A DNA stretch of 55,251 bases, the filler included, from Squatina squatina (Eukaryota), in assembly GCA_031763465.1 (NCBI GenBank). It is 3 parts of 3 records of this genome, joined end to end, with 100 filler letters (N's around TTAATTAATTAA, not from the genome) between each part and the next. Parts side by side here need not be neighbours in the genome. Positions count along the whole stretch, not along the records: positions 40,871 to 55,251 come from JARFOE010000232.1; 2 more parts are not named here. The stretch is one strand, 5' to 3'. Positions 1,753 to 54,331 of the stretch are shown here, in pieces (positions within the stretch are counted from its first letter, which is position 1; every line of letters starts with the position of its first letter). The position numbers and the translations under genes are program-made. The notes under the pieces are model-generated. The model had not been told where the DNA came from. It made no database searches and worked only from the letters and a program-made list of their open reading frames with translations.

Positions 1753-2249
1753 TGCAGCCAGTACACATGTAGAGCAGCTGCAGCATTGAAATGTAAATGT
1801 AGGAGAGAAGTGCACTTGGGTCACTCTACTGAGACCTGGCCTGCCGGCTAAAAGCAACTAATGTTAGTCAAAGTCTTGCTGGAGTCTTTAAGATTTTGCA
1901 ATTTCATCAGCATTAATCCCCACCCCATTTTCTCGCTCTGAAACCTGGTTTACATGACCAAGTTATTTATATTGGGACCCTCATCACATCTCACAAGTCG
2001 CATTCCCGAGCCATAACTAAATCTGGGAACCTTTACATTAGAAGGAGTTTTTCAATGAGTATAAGGTGATGCTCAGAGGTAGACCCGTGACCTCTGAGCA
2101 CCTCGCTCCCTTCTTTTACTGTCTTAGTGTGTCGTTAGTTCCTGTTGGAGGGCCACTGACAAAGAAACGCTTGTTTTTTTGCACCTCTGAACTCTGCTCT
2201 CTTGTTTCCCGTATGTGCGCCCTATCGTCCTATGCACCTCAAATTTAAT

Positions 2250-2610
2250 CCCTCCTCGCCCCATCCACCTCCCTATCTCTGTAACCTCCTACAACCCTCC
2301 GAGATCTCTGCGCTCCTCCAATTCCGGCCTCTCGCGCCTCCCCCCCCAATTCCCATCGCTCCACCATTGGCGGCCGAGCCTTCAGCTGCCTGGGGCCCCG
2401 AGCTCTGGAATTCCCTCCCTAAACCTCTCCGCCTCTTTCCTATTTAAGATGCTCCTTAAAACCGACCTCTTTGACCAAGCTTTTGGTCACCTGTCCCTAA
2501 TATCTCCTTTGTGTGGCTCGGTGTCAAATCCGTGTCTGATAATCGCTCCCGTGAAGTGCCATGGGACATTTTCCCAGATTAAAGGCGCGATATAAATGCA
2601 ATTTGTTGCT
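2250..2610 (+). mobile_element. L2-type LINE 3' end (approximate bounds)
   Basis: PPPYLCNLLQP..RSLRSSNSGL..RAFS..GPELWNSLP-type ORF2 end followed by an aaaggcg..atataaatgca..ttgttg tail; homologous to 22878-23128 and 55010-55251. Confidence 0.8.
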
Positions 2611-2684
2611 TCAGGCGTGTCCAAACACTCCGCCTTTTCCCGCAACCCCCCCACCCCCCTCCACAACACGGTTCCACGACGTAC

Positions 2685-2888
2685 CGATTGTGATAACCAG
2701 GTTTCTTTCCCCTTCGTCCTTCTCGTCATCGCTGCCAGCCCCTTTGAGCACTTCCGGCACCCCTGACGGCAAGGATAGACTTTGGCCCGGTTCGGTGGCG
2801 ACCTCTGGCCTCAGGGTAGCTCCGGCCTCCGAGGTACTGCTGACTGCGGGAGGTGCTTCCAGATCCTGGCTGTTGGAGGGCGGGTCTC
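2685..2888 (-). CDS. Unidentified putative coding exon, (G)DPPSNSQDLEAPPAVSS...GSDDEKDEGERNLVITI
   Basis: gttttctttcag acceptor, G|gtacgt donor, 204 nt, open in phase 1-1, compatible with the 3261-3446 exon; low-complexity acidic/Pro/Ser peptide. Confidence 0.6.
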
Positions 2889-3260
2889 CTGAAAGAAAAC
2901 AGCACAGCGCGAGTTAAAAGGTCTTCGACGCACTGAGTTGCTCCACCAAGCCTGCAAGTAAATGCCAATTTCTCGCACCCCCATTTGTGTCCATTGCTGG
3001 GATTAAGTTGCAGGAACCTTCCAGGACCTCACCCAAGTGCGACTCTTTACTGAAGCCTGGCGTGTAAGCGCTGGGAAGCTATCGCAGCCGAGCCCGACCC
3101 CATCCTCACCGGCCGTCCAGCTGAGGGCACGGGTCAGGACTTGGGGGAGGGTGATCTGTATCATTCCACTGCCACCCCGAGTGAGACCGGCTAACTCCGC
3201 ACAGACTGGGAATGGAGTCTGGGATTTGCGCTACGGCCCAGTGCTGAGCGGTGCCTTCAC

Positions 3261-3446
3261 CTGCTGAGCCATCGGAGGGCACCTCGCCGTAATCGTGGCT
3301 GCTCCGTAAACGGCACGGGAGCATCAAGCACCAGCTCAGAGGGGAGAAGACATGCGTGAAGGGAGAGGCAACCCGCAGATGCTCTCTTCCACCTCCTGGT
3401 GACACGCCATCGAGTGGCACTTGCCGAGGACCTCGGAGCACATCAC
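3261..3446 (-). CDS. Unidentified putative coding exon, (G)DVLRGPRQVPLDGVSPGGGREHL...DYGEVPSDGSA
   Basis: ttttctctctgcaccattccgtttgcag acceptor, G|gtgaag donor, 186 nt, open in phase 1-1, GC-rich. Confidence 0.45.
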
Positions 3447-6400
3447 CTGCAAACGGAATGGTGCAGAGAGAAAATAACCCTGCGGAATAGTCGCCTCCCT
3501 CCAGTCCACCATCAGAAGCCTCGATCTTTGGAACACCTCCCACANNNNNNNNNNNNNNNNNNNNNNNNNNNNNNNNNNNNNNNNNNNNNNNNNNNNNNNN
3601 NNNNNNNNNNNNNNNNNNNNNNNNNNNNNNNNNNNNNNNNNNNNCTTTATTTGCAGTAGAGATGCTTAAAAAAGGTACTGGGGGAGGGGGAAGAAAGAGT
3701 TAATTTGGCCAGAGTAAAAAGGGGCTAATGAAAACCATCTGATGCTGACTGAAAGCATGTACTGTAATCCAGCGCAGTTTCCCTTGTCATCTGTGTGCCC
3801 TAATCAACCAGCATCTGGTTCCCATTGCAGTTCACAAAACAAGACCCAGCTCTGCTGTTAACATTCACTGACACATGGAAAGTTTGCATAGATCTGGTTT
3901 GTGATAGGTTAAGTACTAGTCCACTCCTGATCACCTGCTAGGTCCAGATGGTAACCCTGGCTGGATGTCATGCATTTACAACTTAAAACAAACTAGTCAA
4001 CATGTATGAACTAACTTATTAAATAGCTCTTAAGAGCCAATCAATCAGATGTCCGCAATCTTTTATATGCTTATATTTTAACTCATTTTTATTTCCGTCC
4101 TCACTTTACAGTCTCCCGGTGGCACATCAGGGCCAGTTTAAAAGAGTGGGCAAGCCATCTTCTCCCTGAATTCATACCAGAGTCACTCTTGGGCTTGAGA
4201 TGGGGTGGGGTGGGGGTTGAGGGGGGAGGGGCAGTATGCAAGTAAACAAGGCAGAGACATAGCGAAGCACAATTTTAAGTCTTGTGTTTTTCACTTTGCC
4301 ACTTTACATTTGTGCACTATTTTATTGGTTTACATACAGAACTACTATATATAAAGAAAATGGTTTTTGAGCTTGACGATTGTTAGGTACACACATTTGA
4401 TGTCATTGAAAGTGCCAAAGTGAATGGGCATTAAATCATGGGCTGTGCACCAACAAATTTTCCGTTAAGTGTGTCAGTTCCCATGGTGGTGTAGGGTCTT
4501 GGAAAATGTATCCCTATATCTCTGAGGAGCCAGCAGTCCAACTTTTCTTCTCTTACAAAGAACTGTGTCATGTATGGGGGGTTATCTCAGAATGAAAGTA
4601 TAATTACTTTCTATCTATAATCCCCAGGAAGCATGCACTGAAGACCATTATTTTCTGAGCCAAGTCAAACTTTATTTGCACATTGGTGGAATAACAGCAC
4701 TTTGTATTTGGGCATGCCATAGGATTGACGGTAGGTCAGTCAGCGTGAGAGAGAGTTGTGAGTTAAAGGACTACTAGATGGTTGCACAGATGTTTTGGTC
4801 GGTTTGAGACTGGGACGGCTCTGGCACGCTTGGTCTTTTCGTTCAGCAGGTCTGTGGTTCGATGACAAGCAGAGAGAGATAGGGGTGTCCTTGGCTTGAT
4901 AAAAAAAAAGCCTTGCCCTCGTCTTCTGCTACCTNNNNNNNNNNNNNNNNNNNNNNNNNNNNNNNNNNNNNNNNNNNNNNNNNNNNNNNNNNNNNNNNNN
5001 NNNNNNNNNNNNNNNNNNNNNNNNNNNNNNNNNNGGGATCAGGGGGTATGGAGAGAAAGCAGGTACGGGGTACTGAGTTGCATGATCAGCCATGATCATA
5101 TTGAATGGCGATGCAGGCTCGAAGGGCCGAATGGCCTACTCCTGCACCTATTTTCTATGTTTCTATGTAAGGATGGGTATCCTTCAGGGTTAATTGTTAG
5201 AACGGCTCTATGTTAACTCATACATAGCAGAGAATAAAGCCAAAGGTTTTGGTTCACAGAGATTCAGGCTGCTTGTAGAAACTGCAGTCTAGTCATGGAT
5301 ACCAGGAAGGTTTTAGGGAAAAGTAATATGACCATTTACATCACTTGTTATGCCAGCTTTATAAAGTGACTGTTTATGCAGTATTATGTCTATTTATAAG
5401 TGCAGAAAGAGTAAGCCTGACATTGTACACTTTGAGTTGAACATTAAAGGAGTGTGGAGGTTGGCAAGGTGGGTGTTGGAGAAGTACACTGCAGCAATTT
5501 CAGCGATACCATATAAAATACACAACCAAAAGGATGGGCCTTTACATTGCTATTCACCAGAAAAATGTTAAGGTACCAGAGTTGAATGCATATTTGACTG
5601 AGTCGAGAATAACAGTCACAGTGTGATTTGAATAAGAACGGATAGAACATGGTGGAATCTCAAAAAACAAAACGTACATGCTGTGAGCGCACAGGCTGAC
5701 TTCATGAATACAAGATGAAAAGAGTGACTGCAACTTCAAGGATTCCTCTTTGTAAATCTTCACAAATGTGGACTGCAGCTTTAAGAGTACATAACATCAG
5801 AAATGGGGCTTTGTCTTTCACAGGCCATCTATGTATCAGAAACAGATCTGCCAGCTTCAAGAGCTTCAACTACCTGACTATCAATTTTACTGCTTGTGAA
5901 ATTGGCAAATTAGCCTTTAGCTGTTTGTACAGCCAGGAAATCGGGTAGTAACACCAGATTAGACTGGTGAGCATTGTTTATTCTGTAGTATTAGTGCTTG
6001 GACCTATGCCTAAATTATTCATTTACACTGTGTGTTTTCCTTTGCAAGGGTTAACCTATAAAAAAATGGTGTTTGGAGGGAGGAGGTGCAATCTATTCAG
6101 GGCATCATAAAATCTAATTGGTGAAAATAAAGTGTATGCTGAGTAAACTGCAGCATGGAAACCCAGATTGTATGGTAATACCCAGATAAGAGAAGTGGTA
6201 TGTGGAAGGGGGGAAGGACCTAAAGGTAGTTCTAAAATAAAGAGATTATGAAAGAAAAATTTAAATTCTAAAATAGAAAAGCTATAGTGGCAGTTGACTA
6301 ACTTCTAAATAAGAAAAAAACAAAGATGTCGGCAGGTGGCCCATATTCCTTATTAATGATGATCAGGTTCTGATAGACAATACATTAATCACCTTTAACT

Positions 6401-17152: not shown

Positions 17153-17252
17153 NNNNNNNNNNNNNNNNNNNNNNNNNNNNNNNNNNNNNNNNNNNNTTAA
17201 TTAATTAANNNNNNNNNNNNNNNNNNNNNNNNNNNNNNNNNNNNNNNNNNNN
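17153..17252. other. Artificial scaffold-joining linker
   Basis: 44 N + TTAATTAATTAA (stops in all six frames) + 44 N. Confidence 0.95.
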
Positions 17253-25199: not shown

Positions 25200-25772
25200 T
25201 GAGCGCTAACGTATGAAAAAGACCCACCCCTTTAGTTAAAGGGGAGGGCTGCTGCACTAAATGAACAGCGCCCCGGTGGCCGTCACTGGGCCACCAGAGA
25301 CACTTCTGACCGGGCCAACAGCCTGGCACACTAGTCAGGGTGCCAGGCCAACAGTTGGCGGCCTGGTCGAGGTGAGGGCTGCCATCGGTCGGCCGACCCA
25401 AGAGTCAGCTGACAGAAAAAGATGGCAGCAGGTGGCACAAAGGCCCTCTCCTTTAACGTCCACAGCATTGACAGCTTCGCGGCCTGCTGTCGGTGCCATC
25501 GCTGGCTGCTGGCCTCGCATCCCACGGGGCAATTTCCTTTGCAGGGCGCAAAGGGGTCGGGGCGGTAAGGGGTCGGCGCACCCGTTGATGACATGGTGCG
25601 TTGACCCGAGGCACTAATCGTGAGGTGCGGCAATAAGGACCTAGTGCCTTCGCGATCTCCTGGGGAATCTCCCAGGAGGCGAGATCGCTGCCCCGCCCCG
25701 GCCCAAAATCGCTTAACGCCCCGTTAGCGCCCCTCGGAGGCAATAACAGGGGCGAAAAATTTCGGCTCCATA
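25200..25772. mobile_element. GC-rich Harbinger-like non-autonomous element fragment
   Basis: CpG-rich island in AT-rich DNA ending in ggggcgaaaaatttcggctcca; shares a ccttaaagggg-type internal motif with 32811-33100. Confidence 0.5.
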
Positions 25773-30507: not shown

Positions 30508-32810
30508 GTAAGATTTTAATTGACGTTATTTTTCAGTAGCTTTTCTTGGCTAATTAATTCCGATGCACAATCTACCTTTCTCAAGTTTAAAATTCCTTTC
30601 CCTCTCCCCACCCCCGACTATCTGGTCTTTCTTTCACAACCTGTCAGAATTTAGTCACCTTTCTTCTAGAGTTTGGCAATCTGCGAGATTATATAAACTC
30701 TGGCCAAACTCATCTCCTCAGCAAGTAAAATGTGCACTTAAAATGTTGACACGATTAATTTTAATGCATTTATTAGCAGTTCTCCAACATGGTATGCAGG
30801 CAGAGACTACACAGATATCCCTCCATGAATATTCCTGTGATCTATGGTTAGCTAATCAAAATACAACATGATGAATTCCTTTTTCTTTACCTTCCAACAA
30901 ATCTCATCTTCATTTTGACATTTAATAAAAACGTTATCAAAATACCACTTAAAAGAAGCTTCAAATGATAATTCATAAAGCATAGCAGCTTACTAAGAGA
31001 ATCTAGGATAAAATTGCTCTTTAGCTCACTTGTGCCTTTTAAAGCGTTACAGTGTAGTGAATCCACAAGAATGAAACAATAGCTAAGTAAACTCAATTAC
31101 AGCTTTTAAGACTGCGCAACAGATTGCTGGCCTATGAATTTGATAGTGTAAGTTCTGTTGAGCACTCCCAGTATACAGATGGTGAGTTTAGATCACTACA
31201 TGTATAAAANNNNNNNNNNNNNNNNNNNNNNNNNNNNNNNNNNNNNNNNNNNNNNNNNNNNNNNNNNNNNNNNNNNNNNNNNNNNNNNNNNNNNNNNNNN
31301 NNNNNNNNNTTACATAGTGCCAATCCTTTCACACAATGTACGACTACCACTGTGTATATAGACTAAAGCCAGACCAGTATGTTCAAGTTACCACTGCAAA
31401 TAAGACTCATTGGAGGTGGATTTTTGGCATTGCGTGCTACATCATGGGACTAATGTTTCCTTGCGAATGGAAATGCAAGCATCGCTGAGGACTATCAATG
31501 CTCTTTGCTGCTAATGATTTCCTTTCTGCATTCTTTCTTTTCGTGCCCGCAAGTATGCAACTTTGAACGTTGCCTCAAACTCCAAGCAAGACAACTGGTG
31601 ACGTAAATAATAGAAAGTCTGCTTGAAAACTGCATGGTTGACTTGATGTTACAGTCATGTCTGGAAACGCAAGCTTTCTCTGATGAACTTTCGAAATCTG
31701 TGAAAGGCCTCTGTCAAATCTTGTGAATTTGGGTTGGTGCAACCATGATAAACCTCTTCCTGTTCTTGATTCCTTCAATTGTGTCTCCAAGCAGTAAATG
31801 AATGAAACATGTAACAAGCGGCAAAGGGCCTGTTACTTTCTACGAGGACACTGTCGAATAAACCCAACAAATGGACACACAATGTTGGATATAAAACTTT
31901 TATTCTCTCTGTTGGAACTGATCAGCACCTGTCCTATCCAAAAAAATATATATATAAAAAGCTTTCTGTCTCGGTGCTGGATAATATGGTTGCTTTTAGC
32001 AGATAATGGTGTTCCCAGCGACATTTTGAATTTTTTTTTCTATTAATAAAAACATTGTAGTTTCTTTCTGTGGTTTGCTATTGCTTTTTCATCTCAGGAT
32101 CATGAGGTTAAACTGGAAGTATGATTATGAACTGGTTTTCCTATTTATATAATTCTGTACCACTGACATACTGGAGCACAAGAACACCAAATCACAAAGA
32201 TTAACCTTTGGAACCAAGGTTAATTGCAGCTTCAGAAAACCTTGGTGATATAGATAAACATGTTTTTCTTTTAAAGAAAAGCACAGGTGTAGTGTTCTAT
32301 GATCAAACCATAAAAACTAGCCAGAAGTAAATACGAAAAGAAAGGAATCAATCAATGCAGAAAAATACAAGAGTGCACGATGCTGCAACCAGTTACGACC
32401 CATTTAAAAAGCATTGTTTACTTAAAACTTTTACCATTTAGTTGGAATTTGAATATCCAGTGTCTGGTAAGGAATCTTGAGTATAGTGCACTTAATACTA
32501 GCCAGGTAATGAAAGACTAACTGTATACTGGTCCATTTCCTGTGACATCAGTATTTCGGATGAGACGATAAACCTAGGCCCTATCTGCCCTTAAAACTTG
32601 CATTTATATAGCACCTTCCACGACCAGCAGATGTCTCAAAGTGCTTTACAACTCAATGAAGTACTTTTTGGCACATAGTCACTGTTTTAATGTGGGAAAT
32701 GTGGTGGTCAATTTGCACACAGCAAGCCCCTACAAACAGCAATGTGATAATGACCAGCTGATTTGTTTTTAGTGATGCTGATTGAGTGATACATTTTGGC
32801 CAAGACACTA

Positions 32811-33100
32811 GGGGACCGAAATTGGCTCCCGCCGCACTGGAAACATGTACGGGGCAGGAGCTGCATTTCCTCGCTGGCGCCCGCCCCACCCCGTCCCAGC
32901 CGTCCTGGTATTCGCTGTTCCAGGGTGCTTGCGGGGCGCACCCAGGGCGGCTGGGTCCAGACGCCAGTGGCGAGGCATCAGCGCCATGCCACCGGCCTCC
33001 CAAATGCTGCGTCACAGCACAGCGTGCTGACGTCGCGGGAGAGCCGGGCCTCCCTTAAAGGGGCGGTCTGCCAGCCATCCTGAAGGTCGGCCGATTAAAA
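32811..33100 (+). mobile_element. GC-rich PIF/Harbinger-like non-autonomous element end, inserted into a SINE
   Basis: Begins cta|ggggaccgaaatt; reverse-complement match at 48476-48550; related terminus aaatttcggctcc at about 25757-25770. Confidence 0.55.
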
Positions 33101-33233
33101 AAAAAGAGAGAAATTATTTTATTAATTGAGGAAGGTTATAATAGTTTCATAAAAAAAGCTTATCATTATGCACAGAGCAAAATATGTCTCTGTCACTTCA
33201 TTGGGAGTTAAATTAAATTCTTTGTTCTCACAG

Positions 33234-33370
33234 ATCATAGGAGAACCGCTGCAGTACCGAGATCTAACAGCAGAAATCTGCTTTACCAATCCGATGCCAG
33301 TGAATCTGTGTGATGGTATATTCTTGGTCGAGGGAGCCGGCCTCACTGATGAGCAGAACGTTCCATGCCC
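33234..33370 (+). CDS. Transglutaminase (TGM2-like) C-terminal beta-barrel exon, IIGEPLQYRDLTAEICFTNPMPVNLCDGIFLVEGAGLTDEQNVPC
   Basis: 137-nt exon, ttctcacag / gtaagt; similar to recalled TGM2 [41 protein letters not shown]; paralog not determinable. Confidence 0.85.
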
Positions 33371-40770: not shown

Positions 40771-40870
40771 NNNNNNNNNNNNNNNNNNNNNNNNNNNNNN
40801 NNNNNNNNNNNNNNTTAATTAATTAANNNNNNNNNNNNNNNNNNNNNNNNNNNNNNNNNNNNNNNNNNNN
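40771..40870. other. Artificial scaffold-joining linker
   Basis: 44 N + TTAATTAATTAA + 44 N, identical to 17153-17252. Confidence 0.95.
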
Positions 40871-42284
40871 AAACTGAGCATCAGTTACCAGTTTAATCCC
40901 TTTTATTTCCAGTGTTTTACCCACACAAACCAACCAAAAGCAGCTTGAACAGTCCACATGTCTGTTAAGTTGGCGCAAAATATACAAAAGCCTCGATTGT
41001 CCCTGTTTCCGTCCTTTTCCCATTATGGCTGGTATATTATGGAAATAGCGAAGGGAGTGCATTGTCTCCTGTTGCATTTTCTGCCCAAATTGAGTGAAAG
41101 ATCTAGACCATTTTCCTATTGTGCCTCAGTTCCCCCCCCCCCCCCCCCCTCACTATGTATTGATTCTGATTGGAGATGGCAGACATGTGACCTTATTGCA
41201 GGTTCCTCACTGCTATCGATTTGGGCAATGGGAGGGGTGTGAGAAGCAGGCATGAGTGCTACCCTCCAGTGTAAAACTCCGATTCTTTGGGATAAGTACC
41301 CAGGCTCTGATCAGTGCCTGTCTGACAGCAGGGCCATGGTCATACTCATGTAGGGAACATGCAGGTTGGAACTTATACTACAGCATCAGAATGTGGCGTG
41401 AAATATTGCATTTAATTTAAACCTACTTATCGAAAATGCGAGCTTTTGGTAAAAGCTCAGTATTTGGTGCTTATAAGGAAAAATCATTATCTAACAGGAC
41501 AGTGCAACCTATGTTTTAATTGTCAAAATAATCTTTTTTAATGTGCTGATAATTAAAAGCAGTAACTTATTTATTTATTGGGGGGGGTTTACCTTTATAT
41601 CCAGTGAGTGATAGTTTTGTCTTTTCAATGTTTAATGTGTGTTCAAAGCTGATTTTAAGGTATGCGTATCCCTCTTTGGTTTGAGCTTGTTTATGTCCAC
41701 AGGGTAGGATTAGATGTGGGGTTTCTGCTGAGTGTTAACTTTGTGTTGGTTGCAAAAGAGCGACAAAAATAACTTCATTCTCTTCACTTTTTACAAAAAA
41801 AATGTTTGAAATGTGATGTATGTTTTGTTCCTTTTTAATTTGGCATTTGCACTAAGGTTTGATCTGCCATCAAGTTTAATGTGTCTTGCAGAAGTTGGTT
41901 TAAATGGTTGATGCAGTTTCATAAATATGATTTCCATTTTGAAGTCATTAGGATTTGTGATTTAAACATTCAAAGTGCACTTTTCAAAATCCATTTCACT
42001 CATCGCAAACAAGTCCCCAAAACACCGTTGCAGTTTTCCATTTGTTATTAACATAGAAAATAGGAACAGGTGTAGGCCATTCGGCCCTTCGAGCCTGCTG
42101 CGCCATTCAATATGATGATGGCTGATCTTCCATCTCAGCGCCATATTCCCGCTTTCTCCCCATATCCCTTGGTGCCTTTAGTACNNNNNNNNNNNNNNNN
42201 NNNNNNNNNNNNNNNNNNNNNNNNNNNNNNNNNNNNNNNNNNNNNNNNNNNNNNNNNNNNNNNNNNNNNNNNNNNNNNNNNNNN

Positions 42285-45200
42285 TAAAAAAGCTCCGATT
42301 GGAAGAATGGGATGAAAACCACGTGCGAAGCTGGTTAAAATGGATTCGGGTCAAAGATGAACATATACAAACGCTACATGAGCAAGAAGTAACTGGGGCG
42401 GCGCTGCAGGAGATAAACGAAGGTGACCTTAAAGATCTGGGTGTAAAAAAAGGTCAAATACAACTGATTTTGAAGAAAAGGAATGAGCTATTGAATAGTC
42501 AGAATTTAGAACTGGCCCAGTGCAGTACAACTGAAGTAAGAGAGTGTGAAAAGGCTTCTTTAACACAGGATAATCATAAAGATACTCCTCCTCAAATACC
42601 ACAGACAGAGGCTCTGCCAAGCAAAGCGAAATTGAAAAGCCAGGATCATGTTGCTGCATTAGCATCCGATCCTCCTGACACTTCTGCTGATTCACAACAC
42701 ACAAACACAACTGAAAACAAAGAGAAAGAAGATAAGCCTCATATTCGATGCAAACCTCGTCCATTTGGCAAGGACAATATCAACTTTAAATATGTAAGCA
42801 ACCAAGTTCTTCCACCAGAAACTGGGGTTATAAACTTAATTAGCCCCTGTCATGAATATAAATCTCTTGCCAAAGCTGTAACACTAGACAGACAACGGCT
42901 ACAAGTAAAGTTTGCTCGGGAAGTTATTAAATTTGCCTCTGGATGCATGAATGTTCGGACCAATGGCACAATACATTTTGGGGTTGAGGATAGCAATGAT
43001 AGTTCTGGATACATACATGGTGAAATAATAGGTGTACCTGTAAAAGATCAAGACATCTATGTTGATGCACTGGATTATGTAGACAAATGTTTCAAACACC
43101 ATGGTGAGGTTGCAAGACTTTGCATTCAGCAACCCAAATTTGTGGAAGTGATCAGCAGAGATGGAAGTGAAGGAAGATTTGTTATCGAGATTGATGTGAA
43201 CTCATCAATAAAGACTGTGAAAAACAAAATTTATAGAGTTTGTCTTCCAAATTTTAGTGAAAAAAAAAATAAAATCGAGTATGAAAAGGCAACCATCTAC
43301 AGAAGAAAGGGAGCAAAAACTGAGCCCATCTGTGAAGAAGACCAGGATGACTTTATTTCAGGTATGCAAGAGAGAGACGACAGAAGAGAAGCGGCAGAAA
43401 ACTCAGAGAAGCCAAACAACAGAATCTGTGAGGATCTTGGAAGAAAACTATCTGTTCTTCTCACCGGTGGCAAGAAGTACATGGATACCAGCCAGTGGTA
43501 TGTAGTCGTCATGAACAAATGCAAACCAGAAGATTTACAGAAATTAAACTTTTTACTACACATGAATATTTTTTGTGTGTTTGACTTTGATCCTGATTCT
43601 AAGACCAATGGTTTCTTTGAGCACTATCTGAAACATCACACAGCCAATGTTCACTTCTTACAGGATTACAAATGTGAAGACGGAGAGAGCCCGCTCGACT
43701 TCAGGAGACGTTTGTGTTTGTTTGATCAAACTAGCTGGATATTTTGCAATGGGTGTAATGATTATGATGGTGATGAAAGACCATGTGATTTGAGTACATG
43801 GGTGAAGAACAAAAAAAAGCACTTGAAGAGGACAGTCTCCCTGATCTGTAATGAAATTCTGCCAGCTGGGTCTTTTGTTGTACTTATCCTTCTCCTGTCA
43901 CCAGTAGAACAGCCTCTGGTGGACACATTCCATGAATTCTATGCAGAAATGAATGGCAGAAATGACATCATTTGTATTGCAGAGTGTGAAGAAAACTATC
44001 AGAAATGGGCCAATCTTGCACAGCCCTCGTGCAGTATTGAAACTATTGACCAGATGAGCATTGTTGGGATGAAACTGAACCATGTAAATGACACCATCCA
44101 AACTATGCTGCCAATGTTAATAGATCNNNNNNNNNNNNNNNNNNNNNNNNNNNNNNNNNNNNNNNNNNNNNNNNNNNNNNNNNNNNNNNNNNNNNNNNNN
44201 NNNNNNNNNNNNNNNNNNNNNNNNNNNNNNNNNNNNNNNNNNNNNNNNNNNNNNNNNNNNNNNNNNNNNNNNNNNNNNNNNNNNNNNNNNNNNNNNNNNN
44301 NNNNNNNNNNNNNNNNNNNNNNNNNNNNNNNNNNNNNNNNNNNNNNNNNNNNNNNNNNNNNNNNNNNNNNNNNNNNNNNNNNNNNNNNNNNNNNNNNNNN
44401 NNNNNNNNNNNNNNNNNNNNNNNNNNNAGTTACCACAGTACATGTATTTCATCACCCTGGCAGTGGGGGAAGCACCCTAGCACGACAGGTTTTATGGAAT
44501 TTTCGAAAGGACCTGCGATGTGCATCTGTCAAGCCATTATGTACTGTTGGGAAAGTCTGTGAACATGCCATCCAGCTGCTTGAATATGAGGAAAGTGATA
44601 TTAATCAGTGCTTGCCGGTGTTACTACTTGTTGATGACTCTGATGAAGACTACTTTGATGAAATTAAGTGTGAATTAATAGCTGCAGTTGGCTGTAAGGT
44701 CAGTATTGTGAGGCCTCGCTTCATATTTCTGAGCTGTAGGAGATCCCATAATCCTGAAAAACAGTGCAAAAACATCCCACTGGAAGCGGTAGCTGTTACC
44801 CACAAATTAACGAAGGAAGAAAAGAGATTGTTTTCAAACAAACGTAAGAAACTCCAGGAACATTTTGAGCCAGAGTTCATATTGACATTTGTTCTAATGA
44901 GTGAAGAGTTTCAGGAAGAGTACATTCAGAACTTTGTGAAACATTTACTCAAAGACATTGACCACTCTTCTCTTGTCACTCGGCTGATAAAGTATGTTGC
45001 CTTACTGNNNNNNNNNNNNNNNNNNNNNNNNNNNNNNNNNNNNNNNNNNNNNNNNNNNNNNNNNNNNNNNNNNNNNNNNNNNNNNNNNNNNNNNNNNNNN
45101 NNNNNNNCTTACTGAATCACTATGTGGAGAATTCAAACATTTCACTGTCTCATTGTGAAACATTTTTGGGTCTTGGTGTTCAAATAGATCACTTGCGCCA

Positions 45201-46889
45201 GCAGAGCTTTGAAATCTCCCTGACTGATCAAGCCCACCTTTTGTTCCTACACTTCAGAGACTGTACCACTGAGATTAAGTCGATCCGAATTGTGCACCCA
45301 CTTGTTGCAAAGGAAATACTGCATCAGTTATCAAATCAGCCTCTGAATCAAATTGCGATGGACCTTCTTCAGGAAAAGGCATTTTTTAAACACCGATTTG
45401 GGCGTGATGAGTTCATTAAATTCATTAGAGACTTGTTCATACGACGTCACAGAAGAAGTAAAGGTGACAGTGCAGATACCTTTTTTTCTCCTCTAATCGA
45501 AGATATATGCAATGGGGACAAAGGTCCAGAAAAGGCTGTGGCTGTACTGACAGCAGCTTATGAATGCCTTGGGAAAGACCCATATTTTGCTCAGCAGCTT
45601 GCTCGACTGCATTACATGTACAAACAGTTTGTTGAAGCTATAAAGTGGGCTGAAGATGCAAAAGGTCAGTTGCCATCTAATTCTTACATTTTGGACACAG
45701 NNNNNNNNNNNNNNNNNNNNNNNNNNNNNNNNNNNNNNNNNNNNNNNNNNNNNNNNNNNNNNNNNNNNNNNNNNNNNNNNNNNNNNNNNNNNNNNNNNNN
45801 NNNNNNNNNNNNNNNNNNNNNNNNNNNNNNNNNNNNNNNNNNNNNNNNNNNNNNNNNNNNNNNNNNNNNNNNNNNNNNNNNNNNNNNNNNNNNNNNNNNN
45901 NNNNNNNNNNNNNNNNNNNNNNNNNNNNNNNNNNNNNNNNNNNNNNNNNNNNNNNNNNNNNNNNNNNNNNNNNNNNNNNNNNNNNNNNNNNNNNNNNNNN
46001 NNNNNNNNNNNNNNNNNNNNNNNNNNNNNNNNNNNNNNNNNNNNNNNNNNNNNNNNNNNNNNNNNNNNNNNNNNNNNNNNNNNNNNNNNNNNNNNNNNNN
46101 NNNNNNNNNNNNNNNNNNNNNNNNNNNNNNNNNNNNNNNNNNNNNNNNNNNNNNNNNNNNNNNNNNNNNNNNNNNNNNNNNNNNNNNNNNNNNNNNNNNN
46201 NNNNNNNNNNNNNNNNNNNNNNNNNNNNNNNNNNNNNNNNNNNNNNNNNNNNNNNNNNNNNNNNNNNNNNNNNNNNNNNNNNNNNNNNNNNNNNNNNNNN
46301 NNNNNNNNNNNNNNNNNNNNNNNNNNNNNNNNNNNNNNGACCAAAATATTGAGCGAGCAGCAAAAAAACTAGAAAAAGTAATCTCCATGTATCCTGAAGA
46401 CCCTCAAAAAGAAAAACTAGATCTAGTTGAGCTTGTCAATTTCACCGTGAGTCATATTGCACTCGCATGTGTGGCACCAAGGTCTTCAAAGCTGTCAACA
46501 TACCTGAAACTGAGGGAACTGAGTCAGCAGTTTTGGAGAAAAAAACATAACAATTCAAGTGCCTGGTTTTTACTTACACTGTTGTATTATCCAGACGAAG
46601 CCCTTGACCAGGGACCCAATGAAGCGAAAGGCAAAATCTTAAATACAGCACTTGAAACAATGAAAACACTGTATGACATCAAAATGAAGAATATCCCTTC
46701 CAGAAAAAAGCAGATCTATACTCATTTTTTCTTGGGAAATGGATGCGAGTTTAACAAACTTGTTCATAAAAGTTCGCTTGAAAAGCTTACTGATAGCCGC
46801 CTAAATGAAAGAAGATTGAAGTGGCTTACAGGAGATGTGTGGAAGAACCCCAAGGTCACCCAAAAGTTGAAGCGTGTTAAAGGATGGAC
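42285..46889 (+). CDS. SAMD9: SAMD9/SAMD9L-like STAND NTPase (SAM - AlbA_2 nuclease - SIR2-like - P-loop NTPase - TPR - start of OB fold); intronless, 5' and 3' ends lost in gaps
   Basis: ORFs 42299-45115 and 45124-47088 carry SAMD9 motifs: SAM (EEWDENHVRSWL...EQEVTGAAL...DLGVKKG), AlbA_2 (PETG..NLISPCHEYK..KFAREVIKFASGCMNVRTNGTIHFGVED), SIR2-like (VFDFDPDS, TSWIFCNG), Walker A-like HHPGSGGSTLA (HPGSGGST at 44453-44476), Walker B LLLVDD (44621-44638), IRIVHPLVAKEIL, TPR QQLARLHY..A..WAEDAK, and LKRVKGW. The frame is kept across the 301-N and 638-N gaps. The flanks of the 45008-45107 gap overlap by 7 nt and rejoin in frame. Sequence after the 46890-46989 gap is unrelated. Confidence 0.95.
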
Positions 46890-47234
46890 NNNNNNNNNNN
46901 NNNNNNNNNNNNNNNNNNNNNNNNNNNNNNNNNNNNNNNNNNNNNNNNNNNNNNNNNNNNNNNNNNNNNNNNNNNNNNNNNNNNNNNNNAGGCCACATTT
47001 ACCCATCAGAAAATACTGCATCCTGCTGATGATGGCTCCTTTCCCAGCTATGCCATCCACCACCTCCCACCCAAAATTAAAGAAATAGAAGGAAAAGAGG
47101 ACAGAGAGTAAATCAAAAAGACTTAGAGAAAAAGAAGCAGGAAGAGCAAAAGAGAAACATTAATACGAAAACAACAGAGAGAGATCATATTCTCTGACTT
47201 ACCATGTGCAATGTTAAAGTAAATCAACTTACTT

Positions 47235-49753: not shown

Positions 49754-51180
49754 AATACTCCAGGTGTGGTCTCACCAAGGCCCTGTATAACTGCAGTAAG
49801 ACATCCTTACTCCTGTACTCAAATCCTCTTACAATGAAGGCCAACATACCATTTGCCTTGGTATCATCCTAGTGAATCCTTTTTGCACTTTCTCCAGTGT
49901 CTCTATATCCTTTTAATAATATGAAGACATGAACTGCAGTCTTCCAAGTGTGGTCTAACCAAAGTTCGATACAAATTTAACATACATTAGCTGCTTTTCA
50001 ATTCTATCCCTCTAGAAATCAACCCCTGTGCTATGTTTTTTTTTAATTGCCTTATTAACCTCTGTCACTACTTTTAGTGTTTTGTGTATTTGTACTCCTC
50101 GGTCCCTCTGTTCCTCTACCCCATTTAGACACTTATCTTTCAAGGAGTCTCTTTATTCTTCCTACCAAAATGTAGCACCTCACACTTATCTATATTGAAG
50201 TTAATTTGCCAATTACACCCCCATTCTGCAAGATTATTAATGTCTTCCTGTATTTTGACACAGTCCTCTTCTGTATTAACTATGTTCCCCAATTTGGTGC
50301 CATCTGCAAATTTTGAAATTGTACTTGTGAATCCCGAGTGCAAATCATTTATGTAAATAGTAAACAGCAGTGATCCCAACACTGATCCTTGTGGAACACC
50401 ACTTCCCACCATTTGCCAATCTGAGTAACTACCTTTAACCCCTACACTCTGCGTTGTTTTTCTAGCCAGCTTGTTATTCATTCTACTGCTTGTTCCCTGA
50501 CTCCATATGCTCTGACCTTAGTCATGAGTCTACTATGTGGCACCTTATCGAAGGCCTTTTAAAAATCCAAATGTATTACGCCTACTGCATTAACCTTGTC
50601 TAACATTCTGTTACTTCTTCAAAGAATTCAATAAGTTTGGTCAAGCATGACCTTCCCTTTTCTATTACATCTTTAAGTAAGGATTCTATTATCTTTCCTA
50701 TGACTGACATTAAGATAATTGGTCTATAGTTCCCTGGACTTGTTCCATCTTCCTTTTTATATATAGGAATCACATTAGTTGTCGGTGAGACCTCTGGCAC
50801 TATTCCTTTTCTAATGCATTTTTTATATATGCAATAGTGCTTTTGTTATTTTTATCCAAACTTCTTTTAACATTTGTGAATTCAATCCATCCAGGCCAGG
50901 GGTTTTAACCTCTCTAAGTATTATTTGTTTATCAATTATCTCCCCCTCTTTTATCTTAAATGTCTTTATATTATTTTTGTTCTCTTCTAATGTCATGTCC
51001 ACCCTATTAGTTTCCTGGTAAATATGGAGGCAAAGTAACCATTCAATATTTCTGCCATTTCGCTGTCATTACCTGTGAATTTATCTTGTACACCTGAGTG
51101 GCCCAACTCTACCCTGATTTTTCTTTTGTTATTTATGTATCTGTAGAATGCTATATTATTTCCTTTTATATTCCTTGATA
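49754..51180 (-). mobile_element. CR1 LINE ORF2 (RT) remnant with internal deletions
   Basis: NVIPIYKK..PGNYRPI, GVPQGSVLG.LLFTIYINDL..KFADGTKL..FNIDKCEVLHFG, LQLYRALVRPHLEY. Confidence 0.9.
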
Positions 51181-53498: not shown

Positions 53499-53743
53499 NN
53501 NNNNNNNNNNNNNNNNNNNNNNNNNNNNNNNNNNNNNNNNNNNNNNNNNNNNNNNNNNNNNNNNNNNNNNNNNNNNNNNNNNNNNNNNNNNNNNNNNNAA
53601 AGAATTTGACCAGAAACCTCATTCTCTGGTTTCCTCATATTATTTATCAACATGCAGTTATTCTGTTCATTTTTTTAGTGGAAGAAGTTTTGTTACAGAT
53701 TTTGACTTATTTCAGGACTTACCTCCGTAATTATTTGAAATAA

Positions 53744-53854
53744 AAAATGCTGGAAACACTCAGCCTGCCATCCAGCATCTGTGGGGAGAGAAACAGAGTT
53801 AACTCTGTTTCTCTCTCCACAGATGCTGTCTGACCTGAGTGTTTCCAGCATTTT
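53744..53854. repeat. Long palindromic repeat (Penelope-like inverted terminal repeat family)
   Basis: aaaatgctggaaacactcag..cagcatctgtgg.gagagaaacagagtt|aactctgtttctctctccacagatgctg..ctgagtgtttccagcatttt; a half-copy lies at about 49608-49653. Confidence 0.8.
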
Positions 53855-54331
53855 CTGTTTTTTTAAATTTCAGATTCCCAGCATCTGCAATATTTTGCTA
53901 TTATTTCACGTAATTATTTGATTCATAATTATGAAGGTGGGAATTGTTAAATANNNNNNNNNNTTGGGAGCAAAAACGTTAATGCGCCAATGTTATGAAA
54001 TGAAGCAAAAGCCAAAATGAATACCAGTCTAGTACAAAAAAACAAATGTACGCAAACCTTGAAGGTCATCAAGTTTACCTTCTGTGTCTCAGCAGAAGAA
54101 AAAGTGTCAACTGCTGACAATGAGGAAAGTCTTATCAATTACTTCAACAATCCAAACTCAGATTGCTCTTTCTGTAGTAGATCAGTAAATGATATTGTTA
54201 TAAACTGTATCCTGCAGAGTCCTTATAGAGATTTATACACTAAAAACAAATGTCAGTGATATACTGGCCCATACTTTTATTCGTACAAACTGATTTAAGC
54301 CTACCTCATTGTTTTATACTTTCTGTTGCAG

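Follow-up and report, generated by a model that had tools for sequence, protein, structure and literature searches.

A Squatina squatina gene of a second vertebrate SAMD9 lineage that has likely been lost in mammals

What does the long open reading frame on record JARFOE010000232.1 of Squatina squatina (assembly GCA_031763465.1) encode, and how is it related to human SAMD9 and SAMD9L? We analysed it within a window, the whole stretch of DNA under study, of 55,251 nucleotides including filler (Table 1). The preliminary description had recognised SAM, AlbA_2, SIR2-like, P-loop and TPR domains and the start of an OB fold, and each of these was matched by Pfam or by human SAMD9 structures. Their order (SAM, AlbA_2/tRNase, SIR2-like, P-loop NTPase, TPR, OB) is that of SAMD9, and the segment matches to human SAMD9 structures reached e-values of 3e-73, 3e-30, 1e-24 and 4e-13, the sequenced part of the OB region contributing only 34 aligned residues. 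Pfam returned no AlbA_2 match in the window; the tRNase domain is assigned from PDB sequence and fold matches, its model aligning to 9o0d and 7ksp with a TM of 0.90 on the target and an rmsd of 1.9-2.0. The SIR2-like model fits 9zjs with an rmsd of 1.9 over 234 columns, and the winged-helix/HD2/TPR1 segment (pLDDT 91) has a TM of 0.78 to the same structure, so that structure prediction also finds SAMD9 folds in the modelled segments. The SIR2-like domain of human SAMD9 lacks a NAD lid (PMC13600222), and that of Squatina is predicted to be structural and no NADase. Best matches and tree position both lie within the family, and the gene is a genuine SAMD9-family member, as had been proposed.

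Table 1. Coordinates of the Squatina gene, its sequencing gaps and its sites in the window; residue numbers are those of human SAMD9.
Feature	Position	Strand	Basis or remark
Unsized N gap, expected start codon + ~3 codons	42185..42284	+	relatives' N-termini
Segment 1	42287-44125	+	613 aa, stop-free
SAM domain	42302..42490	+	Pfam SAM_1 E 1.9e-6, SAM_2 E 7.8e-6
Disordered linker	42527..42733	+	pLDDT <50 over most of residues 81-149
tRNase (AlbA_2-type) effector domain	42743..43402	+	phmmer to 7ksp, 9o0d E 1e-30
SIR2-like domain	43436..44125	+	alignment to human SAMD9; model
Sized N gap, 101 codons, Delta domain + lineage insert	44127..44427	+	
Segment 2	44429-45007	+	193 aa, stop-free
STAND nucleotide-binding domain + HD1	44429..45007	+	human SAMD9 alignment E 3e-30
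Walker A HHPGSGGST	44450-44476	+	aligned to human HHPGCGGTT
Walker B DD	44633-44638	+	human SAMD9 alignment
Sensor-1 Arg	44741-44743	+	human SAMD9 alignment
Artefactual 100-N gap	45008..45107		flanks share 7 bases
Segment 3	45109-45699	+	197 aa, stop-free
Winged-helix, HD2, start of TPR1	45109..45699	+	human SAMD9 alignment; model
Lineage-specific Arg at human 972	45256	+	alignment
H985 equivalent	45295	+	human SAMD9 alignment
Glu at human K1026	45409	+	alignment
Sized N gap, 213 codons, inside TPR region	45701..46338	+	
Segment 4	46339-46890	+	184 aa, stop-free
TPR2 + first part of OB region	46339..46890	+	human SAMD9 alignment E 4e-13
Unsized N gap, expected last 53 codons + stop	46890..46989	+	

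In a phylogeny with vertebrate SAMD9/SAMD9L proteins, the Squatina gene falls inside the SAMD9 family but in a clade apart from the human pair. Two lineages split with 100/100 support, a result repeated by FastTree on 73 and 309 rows and under a mixture model, with three proteins longer than 1,850 aa left out of the 309-row alignment and most representative sequences lying outside the trees. Lineage B holds human SAMD9/SAMD9L along with copies from sharks, rays, chimaera, coelacanth, bird and fish, while the second lineage, to which the Squatina gene belongs, spans sharks, fish, amphibians, reptiles and birds. Sharks carry both, and the two copies sit on different-sized chromosomes in all five shark species listed with both. 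A shark-specific duplication was rejected (shark copies as one clade, p-AU 7e-125). On the trees, the split predates the vertebrates or falls close to their origin. A single search with a turtle protein of this second lineage as query (8,000 candidates scored) returned no named mammal among the best 120 of 634 hits, which ran from turtles to fish, and 13 unnamed hits among these 120 were 81-93% identical to named bird, lizard and frog proteins; the second lineage has likely been lost in mammals. The suggestion that the gene resembles fish-type paralogs more than the mammalian pair holds in that the Squatina protein is 51-52% identical to three teleost proteins versus 31-33% to five mammal-clade proteins. 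However, the fish-type label is too narrow: amphibians, reptiles and birds group with it as well (52-54% identity to two bird proteins), and the mammal-type lineage is likewise present in sharks and fish.

Would such a protein still cut tRNA? The essential tRNase residues have been defined in human SAMD9 (PMC10246899, PMC12331169), and Squatina keeps all four acids (E184, E196, E218 and D241, at 42818, 42854, 42920 and 42989) and all three basic positions (K198, K214 and R221, the last as Lys, at 42860, 42908 and 42929), as do 172 of 178 second-lineage members. The SAMD9 family has a non-canonical Walker A, GG[T/S] with an upstream histidine (PMC5445408, PMC13600222), and the Squatina motif is of this type; H737, G742-G743, T744 (as Ser), T745, D799, D800, R837, R982 and H985 are kept, their roles being drawn from human SAMD9 (PMC13600222). 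With family, domain order, lineage and the conservation of catalytic and ATP-site residues in hand, the function is read across from human SAMD9: a sensor-nuclease role, as first proposed, appears likely, and the conserved residues suggest that the gene is functional. At rest the protein would be an ATP-bound, closed and self-locked cytosolic sensor. An infection trigger would open it and lead to self-association, with oligomerisation as in human SAMD9, and the activated protein would then cut tRNA, presumably tRNA-Phe, whose 2'-O-methylated form is the substrate of tRNase-SA nucleases, so that protein synthesis stops. The gene may also be interferon-induced, like human SAMD9, and the sequence predicts lock and activation surfaces wired unlike those of the human protein. 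We thus consider it reasonably probable that the Squatina gene encodes a second-lineage SAMD9 STAND protein, apart from human SAMD9/SAMD9L and of a lineage likely lost in mammals, which likely acts as a self-locked, infection-triggered tRNA-cutting sensor.

A different RNA target (another tRNA, rRNA or mRNA) or trigger (stress or development) for an intact SAMD9-family nuclease would fit several features. Second-shell binding residues have changed lineage-wide (K242 to Ser, D345, K350 to Glu), position 350 being Glu in Squatina and in 161 of 177 other second-lineage members, and K350E reduces tRNA binding of the human SAMD9 domain. The loop adjoining D241 exceeds that of the human-numbering reference by 6 residues, the old split has left a long time to diverge, and both copies persist together in sharks, fish, amphibians, reptiles and birds, which argues against full redundancy. 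Yet none of the seven essential tRNase positions has been lost, K242 and K350 are less critical positions, and rabbit SAMD9, although altered at R221 and K350, remains specific for tRNA-Phe (PMC12331169), so we regard such a shift as unlikely.

The regulation of the putative tRNA-cutting sensor may be another matter. Human SAMD9 has an E974-K1026 salt bridge as well as SIR2/SIR2 and OB/SIR2 interfaces (PMC13600222), and K1026E is a gain-of-function change. These human-type regulation residues do not recur in Squatina: the E974-K1026 pair has become C974/E1026, the six SIR2-dimer positions read V, K, K, gap, A and S, none of them as in human SAMD9, and the OB loop, unsequenced in Squatina, differs from human throughout its second-lineage relatives; R459 is not kept either. 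The acidic residue at 1026 is fixed across the second lineage, with a new basic residue at 972 beside it, in counts that come from related rows and reflect one or few events. From the alignment we predict that this charge swap replaces the human salt bridge. Human SAMD9 depends on residues such as those of the SIR2 dimer for its activation; since these and the OB loop differ, the Squatina protein may be activated by a route other than the human one. A wider scenario can be offered tentatively: two SAMD9 tRNA-nuclease lineages may have existed since before the jawless/jawed split, all main non-mammal groups, from sharks to birds, keeping the second and mammals losing it. The gain-of-function states of human disease that it contains (an acid in place of K1026 in every member, R685Q and R982H in a subset) might then be held in check by a rewired, charge-swapped lock, and its own activation surface might mean that different viruses are sensed or different RNA is cut.

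The sequenced gene consists of four stop-free segments, totalling 1,185 of ~1,560 codons, in which the other reading frames contain 7-60 stops each. Read through, it spans 1,499 codons including 314 N, in line with the ~1,490 codons first reported, and the claim of no stop in sequenced DNA was borne out. The 100-N gap between segments 2 and 3 is an artefact, as had been recognised: its flanks share 7 bases, and there is a 2-residue overlap at this point in each of the 15 chondrichthyan proteins tested. The terms intact and single-exon were not confirmed. Some 375 codons (~24% of the coding sequence) fall in N gaps, which take in the beginning of the frame with its start codon, two blocks inside it and its final 53 residues. 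Two to four residues precede the first sequenced codon in 12 of 15 chondrichthyan relatives, and all 15 extend 53 residues past the last segment; these 53 residues found no match downstream of the final gap in the window. A dispersed repeat copy lies upstream of the start-codon gap (42050-42178, self-BLAST). Of 15 relatives, two share the gap pair of 101 and 213 codons, and these are lamniforms; the corresponding blocks measure 104 and 216-219 codons in the nearest relatives. The sized-gap lengths likely derive from reference scaffolding. Given this fit to lamniform and not nearest-relative lengths, the frame across the gaps is not independent evidence of intactness.

Could the gene be a recently broken copy, with its lesion in the unsequenced quarter? 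The extent of the gaps and their non-independent sizes would allow it, and copy number in the SAMD9 family is labile (PMC12680541 section 9), Pristiophorus having three second-lineage proteins, one of them on a long branch. Against this, the 1,185 codons show neither stop nor frameshift, full-length orthologues occur in every shark order returned by our searches, and conservation and branch length are normal: Squatina departs at 16 of 243 strongly conserved columns versus 9-19 in 19 other chondrichthyan rows, and its end branch is 0.063 versus 0.057 in its sister. By these measures the gene appears free of decay, and we consider a broken copy quite improbable. Identity to annotated orthologues in other sharks is 73-87%, and 60-86% for the last segment against chondrichthyan orthologues. 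The literature searches returned no experiment on the gene, in keeping with its description as uncharacterised, but public shark genomes already contain annotated orthologues under the name SAMD9-like.

That the gene is instead the shark orthologue of human SAMD9/SAMD9L, as the shared database name and the best match among solved structures (human SAMD9) might suggest, is extremely improbable: the trees do not group it with the mammalian genes and refute direct orthology, barring gene conversion or long-branch error, distinct shark, ray and chimaera genes group with coelacanth, bird and mammal SAMD9/9L, the Squatina protein is 32-34% identical to eight lineage B proteins, and a SAMD9L, presumably the other copy, is listed in PMC4527844 on an elephant-shark scaffold with CDK6, PEX1 and FAM133B (human 7q21-type).

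We also looked at expression and at the surroundings of the gene. In three runs whose RNA origin is a guess, contigs cover segment 1 at ~90% identity, but the upstream control stretch 40880-42040 is covered in these runs too, so they are uninformative on transcription. One of these runs contains segment 1 in a single gap-free 6.2-kb contig. The control stretch may itself fall in the gene's 5' region. A Pfam scan of 208 stop-free ORFs of at least 58 aa outside the gene found no neighbouring gene in the window. Its one match above cut-off was a LINE-type RT fragment, and a single DUF4612 match stayed below threshold. There was no Rfam match in the window and no ERN1 exon by seven kinase/RNase motifs, and nothing relevant linked samd9 with ern1 among the literature matches listed. 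Nine loose ISRE-like matches were counted without a chance control, and the 4 kb preceding the coding exon contain none of them. In trout, type I interferon induces a samd9l of unstated lineage (PMC6612602).

Work on interferon-stimulated 'samd9l' genes of fish and birds may concern a paralogue absent in humans, and function is then not transferable by name. The second lineage is also a natural experiment on autoinhibition in that its normal state carries a substitution that activates human SAMD9. Its 1026 state offers a direct test of the lock from the 2026 cryo-EM work and may aid the reading of patient variants. The lineage is further a candidate for the host-range barriers that poxviruses of fish, reptiles and birds encounter, a question that PMC13245274 raises.

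Finally, we compared the Squatina protein with known systems. Schlafen RNases (SLFN5, 11, 12, 13, 14) have a related AlbA_2-type fold (weak Foldseek matches, E 1e-3 to 8e-3), but these matches lack the STAND NTPase, SIR2-like and TPR parts and the overall protein is different. Bacterial Avs9/Avs5 have the AlbA_2-SIR2-NTPase-TPR layout in common (PMC12680541 section 6), and an AVAST5 filament chain gave one weak fold match to the Squatina model (E 0.04). The likeness to Avs noted earlier is a published one, described as convergence; Avs9/Avs5 lack SAM and are ~15% identical to human SAMD9 (PMC12680541). An Avs origin was rejected, the Squatina protein having a SAM domain and no match to Avs models in PADLOC at E 0.1. 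Human SAMD9/SAMD9L (tRNase-SA; PDB 7ksp, 9zjr) share with Squatina the domain order, tRNase active site, two modelled folds, Walker A type, Walker B, sensor-1 Arg and winged-helix His. They differ as a paralogous lineage of ~31% identity and in the E974-K1026 pair, SIR2 dimer residues, R459, K242 and K350, with the OB loop differing in relatives. The lineage B proteins of sharks, coelacanth and bird (P0295-P0303, P0286, P0398) share the family, the catalytic residues and the shark genomes, but form a separate clade that keeps human-type regulatory residues. The chondrichthyan 'SAMD9-like' proteins (XP_041073266 of Carcharodon, XP_067859974 of Heptranchias and UniRef100_UPI00398E739A of Pristiophorus), which are automatic annotations, are orthologues with the same length and domain order and 82-87% identity over segment 1. 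Taken alone, the Squatina gene adds one to the annotated SAMD9-like orthologues; its value is that it exposes the second SAMD9 lineage.

The gene on the plus strand at 42287-46890 is a further member of the SAMD9 family, orthologues of which are already annotated in sharks. Sequence searches with its four sequenced segments matched human SAMD9 structures (E = 3e-73, 3e-30, 1e-24 and 4e-13 for segments 1 to 4), and among the best 120 of 585 database matches the closest were shark SAMD9-like proteins (73-87% identity), followed by chimaera (66%) and basal ray-finned fish (53-56%). The AlphaFold model of segment 1 (pLDDT 84.6) resembled SAMD9 both in the tRNase domain, as seen in crystal structures (TM 0.90 on target), and in the SIR2-like part (rmsd 1.9 over 234 columns), and that of segment 3 (pLDDT 91.4) resembled the winged-helix/HD2/TPR part (TM 0.78). 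In a 30-row IQ-TREE analysis, the window protein and Pristiophorus formed a pair with support of 98/95, which makes a squalomorph shark the likely host. The Pristiophorus protein P0003 is 71% identical to the window protein in its C-terminal part and 84-88% elsewhere.

Another Pristiophorus protein, P0001, bears the source name 'serine/threonine-protein kinase/endoribonuclease IRE1 isoform X1' and is SAMD9-like throughout, so its gene model may be fused to ERN1, either as a neighbour or as the host gene. In humans, ERN1 maps to 17q, and 17q and 7q are regions that arose by an old duplication. The window itself yielded no ERN1 exon. A short stretch at 41270-41299, some 1 kb 5' of the coding exon, matches the N-terminal extension of P0001 (E = 0.002) and is possibly an upstream exon of the window gene; the 1.1 kb around it is kept in relatives.

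The window assembly is of the fragmented short-read type, with 42 N runs, and the four segments are each open in one frame (613, 193, 197 and 184 amino acids), the other frames being stop-rich. The 100-N gap at 45008-45107 had been called artefactual, and this was borne out by 7 bases common to both flanks and a two-residue overlap in 15/15 chondrichthyan proteins. Read through this false gap, the span has 1,499 codons, 1,185 sequenced and 314 N; relatives are mostly 1,557-1,566 amino acids long, and compared with them the sequence lacks about four codons at the N-terminus, 53 at the C-terminus and two blocks in between. The sized gaps, of 101 and 213 codons, are matched as a pair by only 2 of 15 relatives, Carcharodon and Cetorhinus, while the corresponding lengths in the nearest relatives, two Pristiophorus proteins, are 104 and 216 or 219. 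Because the pair fits lamniforms and not the nearest relatives, we infer that the gap sizes were taken over from a lamniform reference, and the two spacers in the table likewise point to reference scaffolding. The frame across the sized gaps is therefore no evidence of intactness. The preliminary description was largely right as a whole, but intactness is unproven and a single exon not demonstrable. Judged by its sequence, the sequenced part is without sign of decay, since its 16 departures at 243 conserved columns fall inside the range of 9-19 in 19 other chondrichthyan rows.

Spacers and other elements in the window
Feature	Position	Strand	Details
Spacer	17153-17252		44 N, TTAATTAATTAA, 44 N; 12 letters non-genomic
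Spacer	40771-40870		44 N, TTAATTAATTAA, 44 N; 12 letters non-genomic
Reverse transcriptase fragment	50143-50517	-	Pfam RVT_1, E = 1.6e-8
CpG-rich stretch	2001-3500
CpG-rich stretch	25251-25750
CpG-rich stretch	32751-33250
Imperfect palindrome, ~120 bases	53738-53860		86% self-complementary by self-BLAST

The reverse transcriptase fragment is probably a decayed LINE. The CpG-rich stretch at 2001-3500 is partly dispersed repeat, has no Pfam match and could be a promoter region.

A coelacanth SAMD9 query retrieved, among the best 120 of 828 matches, mammalian SAMD9/9L together with further shark, ray and chimaera proteins that form a second set. Four trees (73 rows; 309 rows; 30 rows, IQ-TREE; 19 rows, mixture model) rooted on amphioxus and acorn worm all recovered two clades. 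Lineage A (178 rows; support 100/100 in the 30-row tree) comprises the window protein, sharks, chimaera, ray-finned fish, amphibians, reptiles and birds; lineage B (128 rows) comprises mammalian SAMD9 and SAMD9L, birds, reptiles, amphibians, coelacanth, lungfish, ray-finned fish and sharks, and its sister group is formed by the lamprey and hagfish proteins, of which three were sampled (100/100). In five of the five sharks listed with both, A and B copies lie on sequences of differing length (52-78 Mb vs 135-227 Mb). With groups named once the first tree was known and a root that depends on long outgroup branches, a single clade of all shark copies was rejected (p-AU 7e-125), and one of all jawed-vertebrate copies less strongly (p-AU 0.00055). 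Among the stored Pristiophorus proteins P0001, P0003, P0137 and P0295, three belong to lineage A, one of them with a long branch, and the fourth to lineage B.

Searching with a tortoise lineage-A protein (8,000 candidates scored) returned turtles, crocodilians, lizards and birds, then amphibians, then fish and sharks, and none of the named entries among the best 120 of 634 is mammalian; 107 of these 120 were named, and the remaining 13 share 81-93% identity with bird, lizard or frog proteins that are named. A fast-evolving mammalian lineage-A copy could rank below these 120. Coelacanth and lungfish were likewise missing from the lineage-A matches listed (best 120 of 585, 828 and 634), while coelacanth is represented by three proteins in lineage B; this may point to a second loss. 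The motif LDRQRLQ.KFA, earlier described as fish-type, is absent from lineage B and is identical in tortoise, and therefore marks lineage A, not fish.

Numbered by human SAMD9 through the reference P0405 (41/41 listed human sites match), the window protein retains E184, E196, E218, D241, K198 and K214, with Lys at the R221 position. These seven positions are essential for the tRNase (PMC10246899, PMC12331169) and all are retained in 172/178 lineage-A and 118/128 lineage-B rows. In the ATP site defined in PMC13600222, H737, G742, G743, T745, D799, D800, R837 and H985 are retained and T744 is replaced by Ser. Walker B (44633-44635) has Asp at 799 vs Glu in 175/177 other lineage-A rows. Human SAMD9 is closed and ATP-bound, is activated via SIR2/SIR2 and OB/SIR2 contacts, and has a SIR2-like domain described as unlikely to bind NAD (PMC13600222); the window protein would follow the same general scheme of a closed ATP-bound form activated by domain contacts.

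In human SAMD9, K1026E causes a strong gain of function, which E974K rescues. Position 1026 is an acid in 171/177 other lineage-A rows and Glu in the window. Counting relatives as rows, in a hairpin of uncertain register (one alignment is shifted by one residue), an acid at 1026 goes with a base at 972 in 149/178 lineage-A rows, and the reverse, an acid at 974 and a base at 1026, occurs in 93/128 lineage-B rows, suggesting that lineage A may have a swapped salt bridge. Of the six SIR2-dimer residues of human SAMD9, none is identical in the window protein. Other residues of human SAMD9 are replaced in most other lineage-A rows: R593 by Ser (166/177), R1562 by Pro (168/177), R459 by His (167/177) and K350 by Glu (161/177). 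Gln at 685 and His at 982, each a disease state in humans, occur in 33 lineage-A rows apiece. The trigger and activation surfaces of this lineage therefore likely differ from those of human SAMD9, which counts against a simple transfer of function.

Zebrafish and trout samd9l are reported to be interferon-induced, the lineage not being given (PMC12107551, 10.1101/693333, PMC6612602), and SAMD9L is listed next to CDK6 on an elephant-shark scaffold (PMC4527844). In PMC12680541, 18 birds and amphibians serve as outgroups only, and the words fish, shark and chondrichth- are absent from its main text. In the texts covered, we found no paper that names a second vertebrate SAMD9 lineage lost in mammals or that tests a shark SAMD9; Lemos de Matos 2013 (PMC3685527) may already show the lineage, as may figures, supplements or subscription papers. 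Both the lineage split and the predicted rewiring of the lock can be tested, and both are of real interest to specialists in SAMD9 and comparative immunity. The resemblance of SAMD9 to Avs9 is already published, as convergence (PMC12680541).
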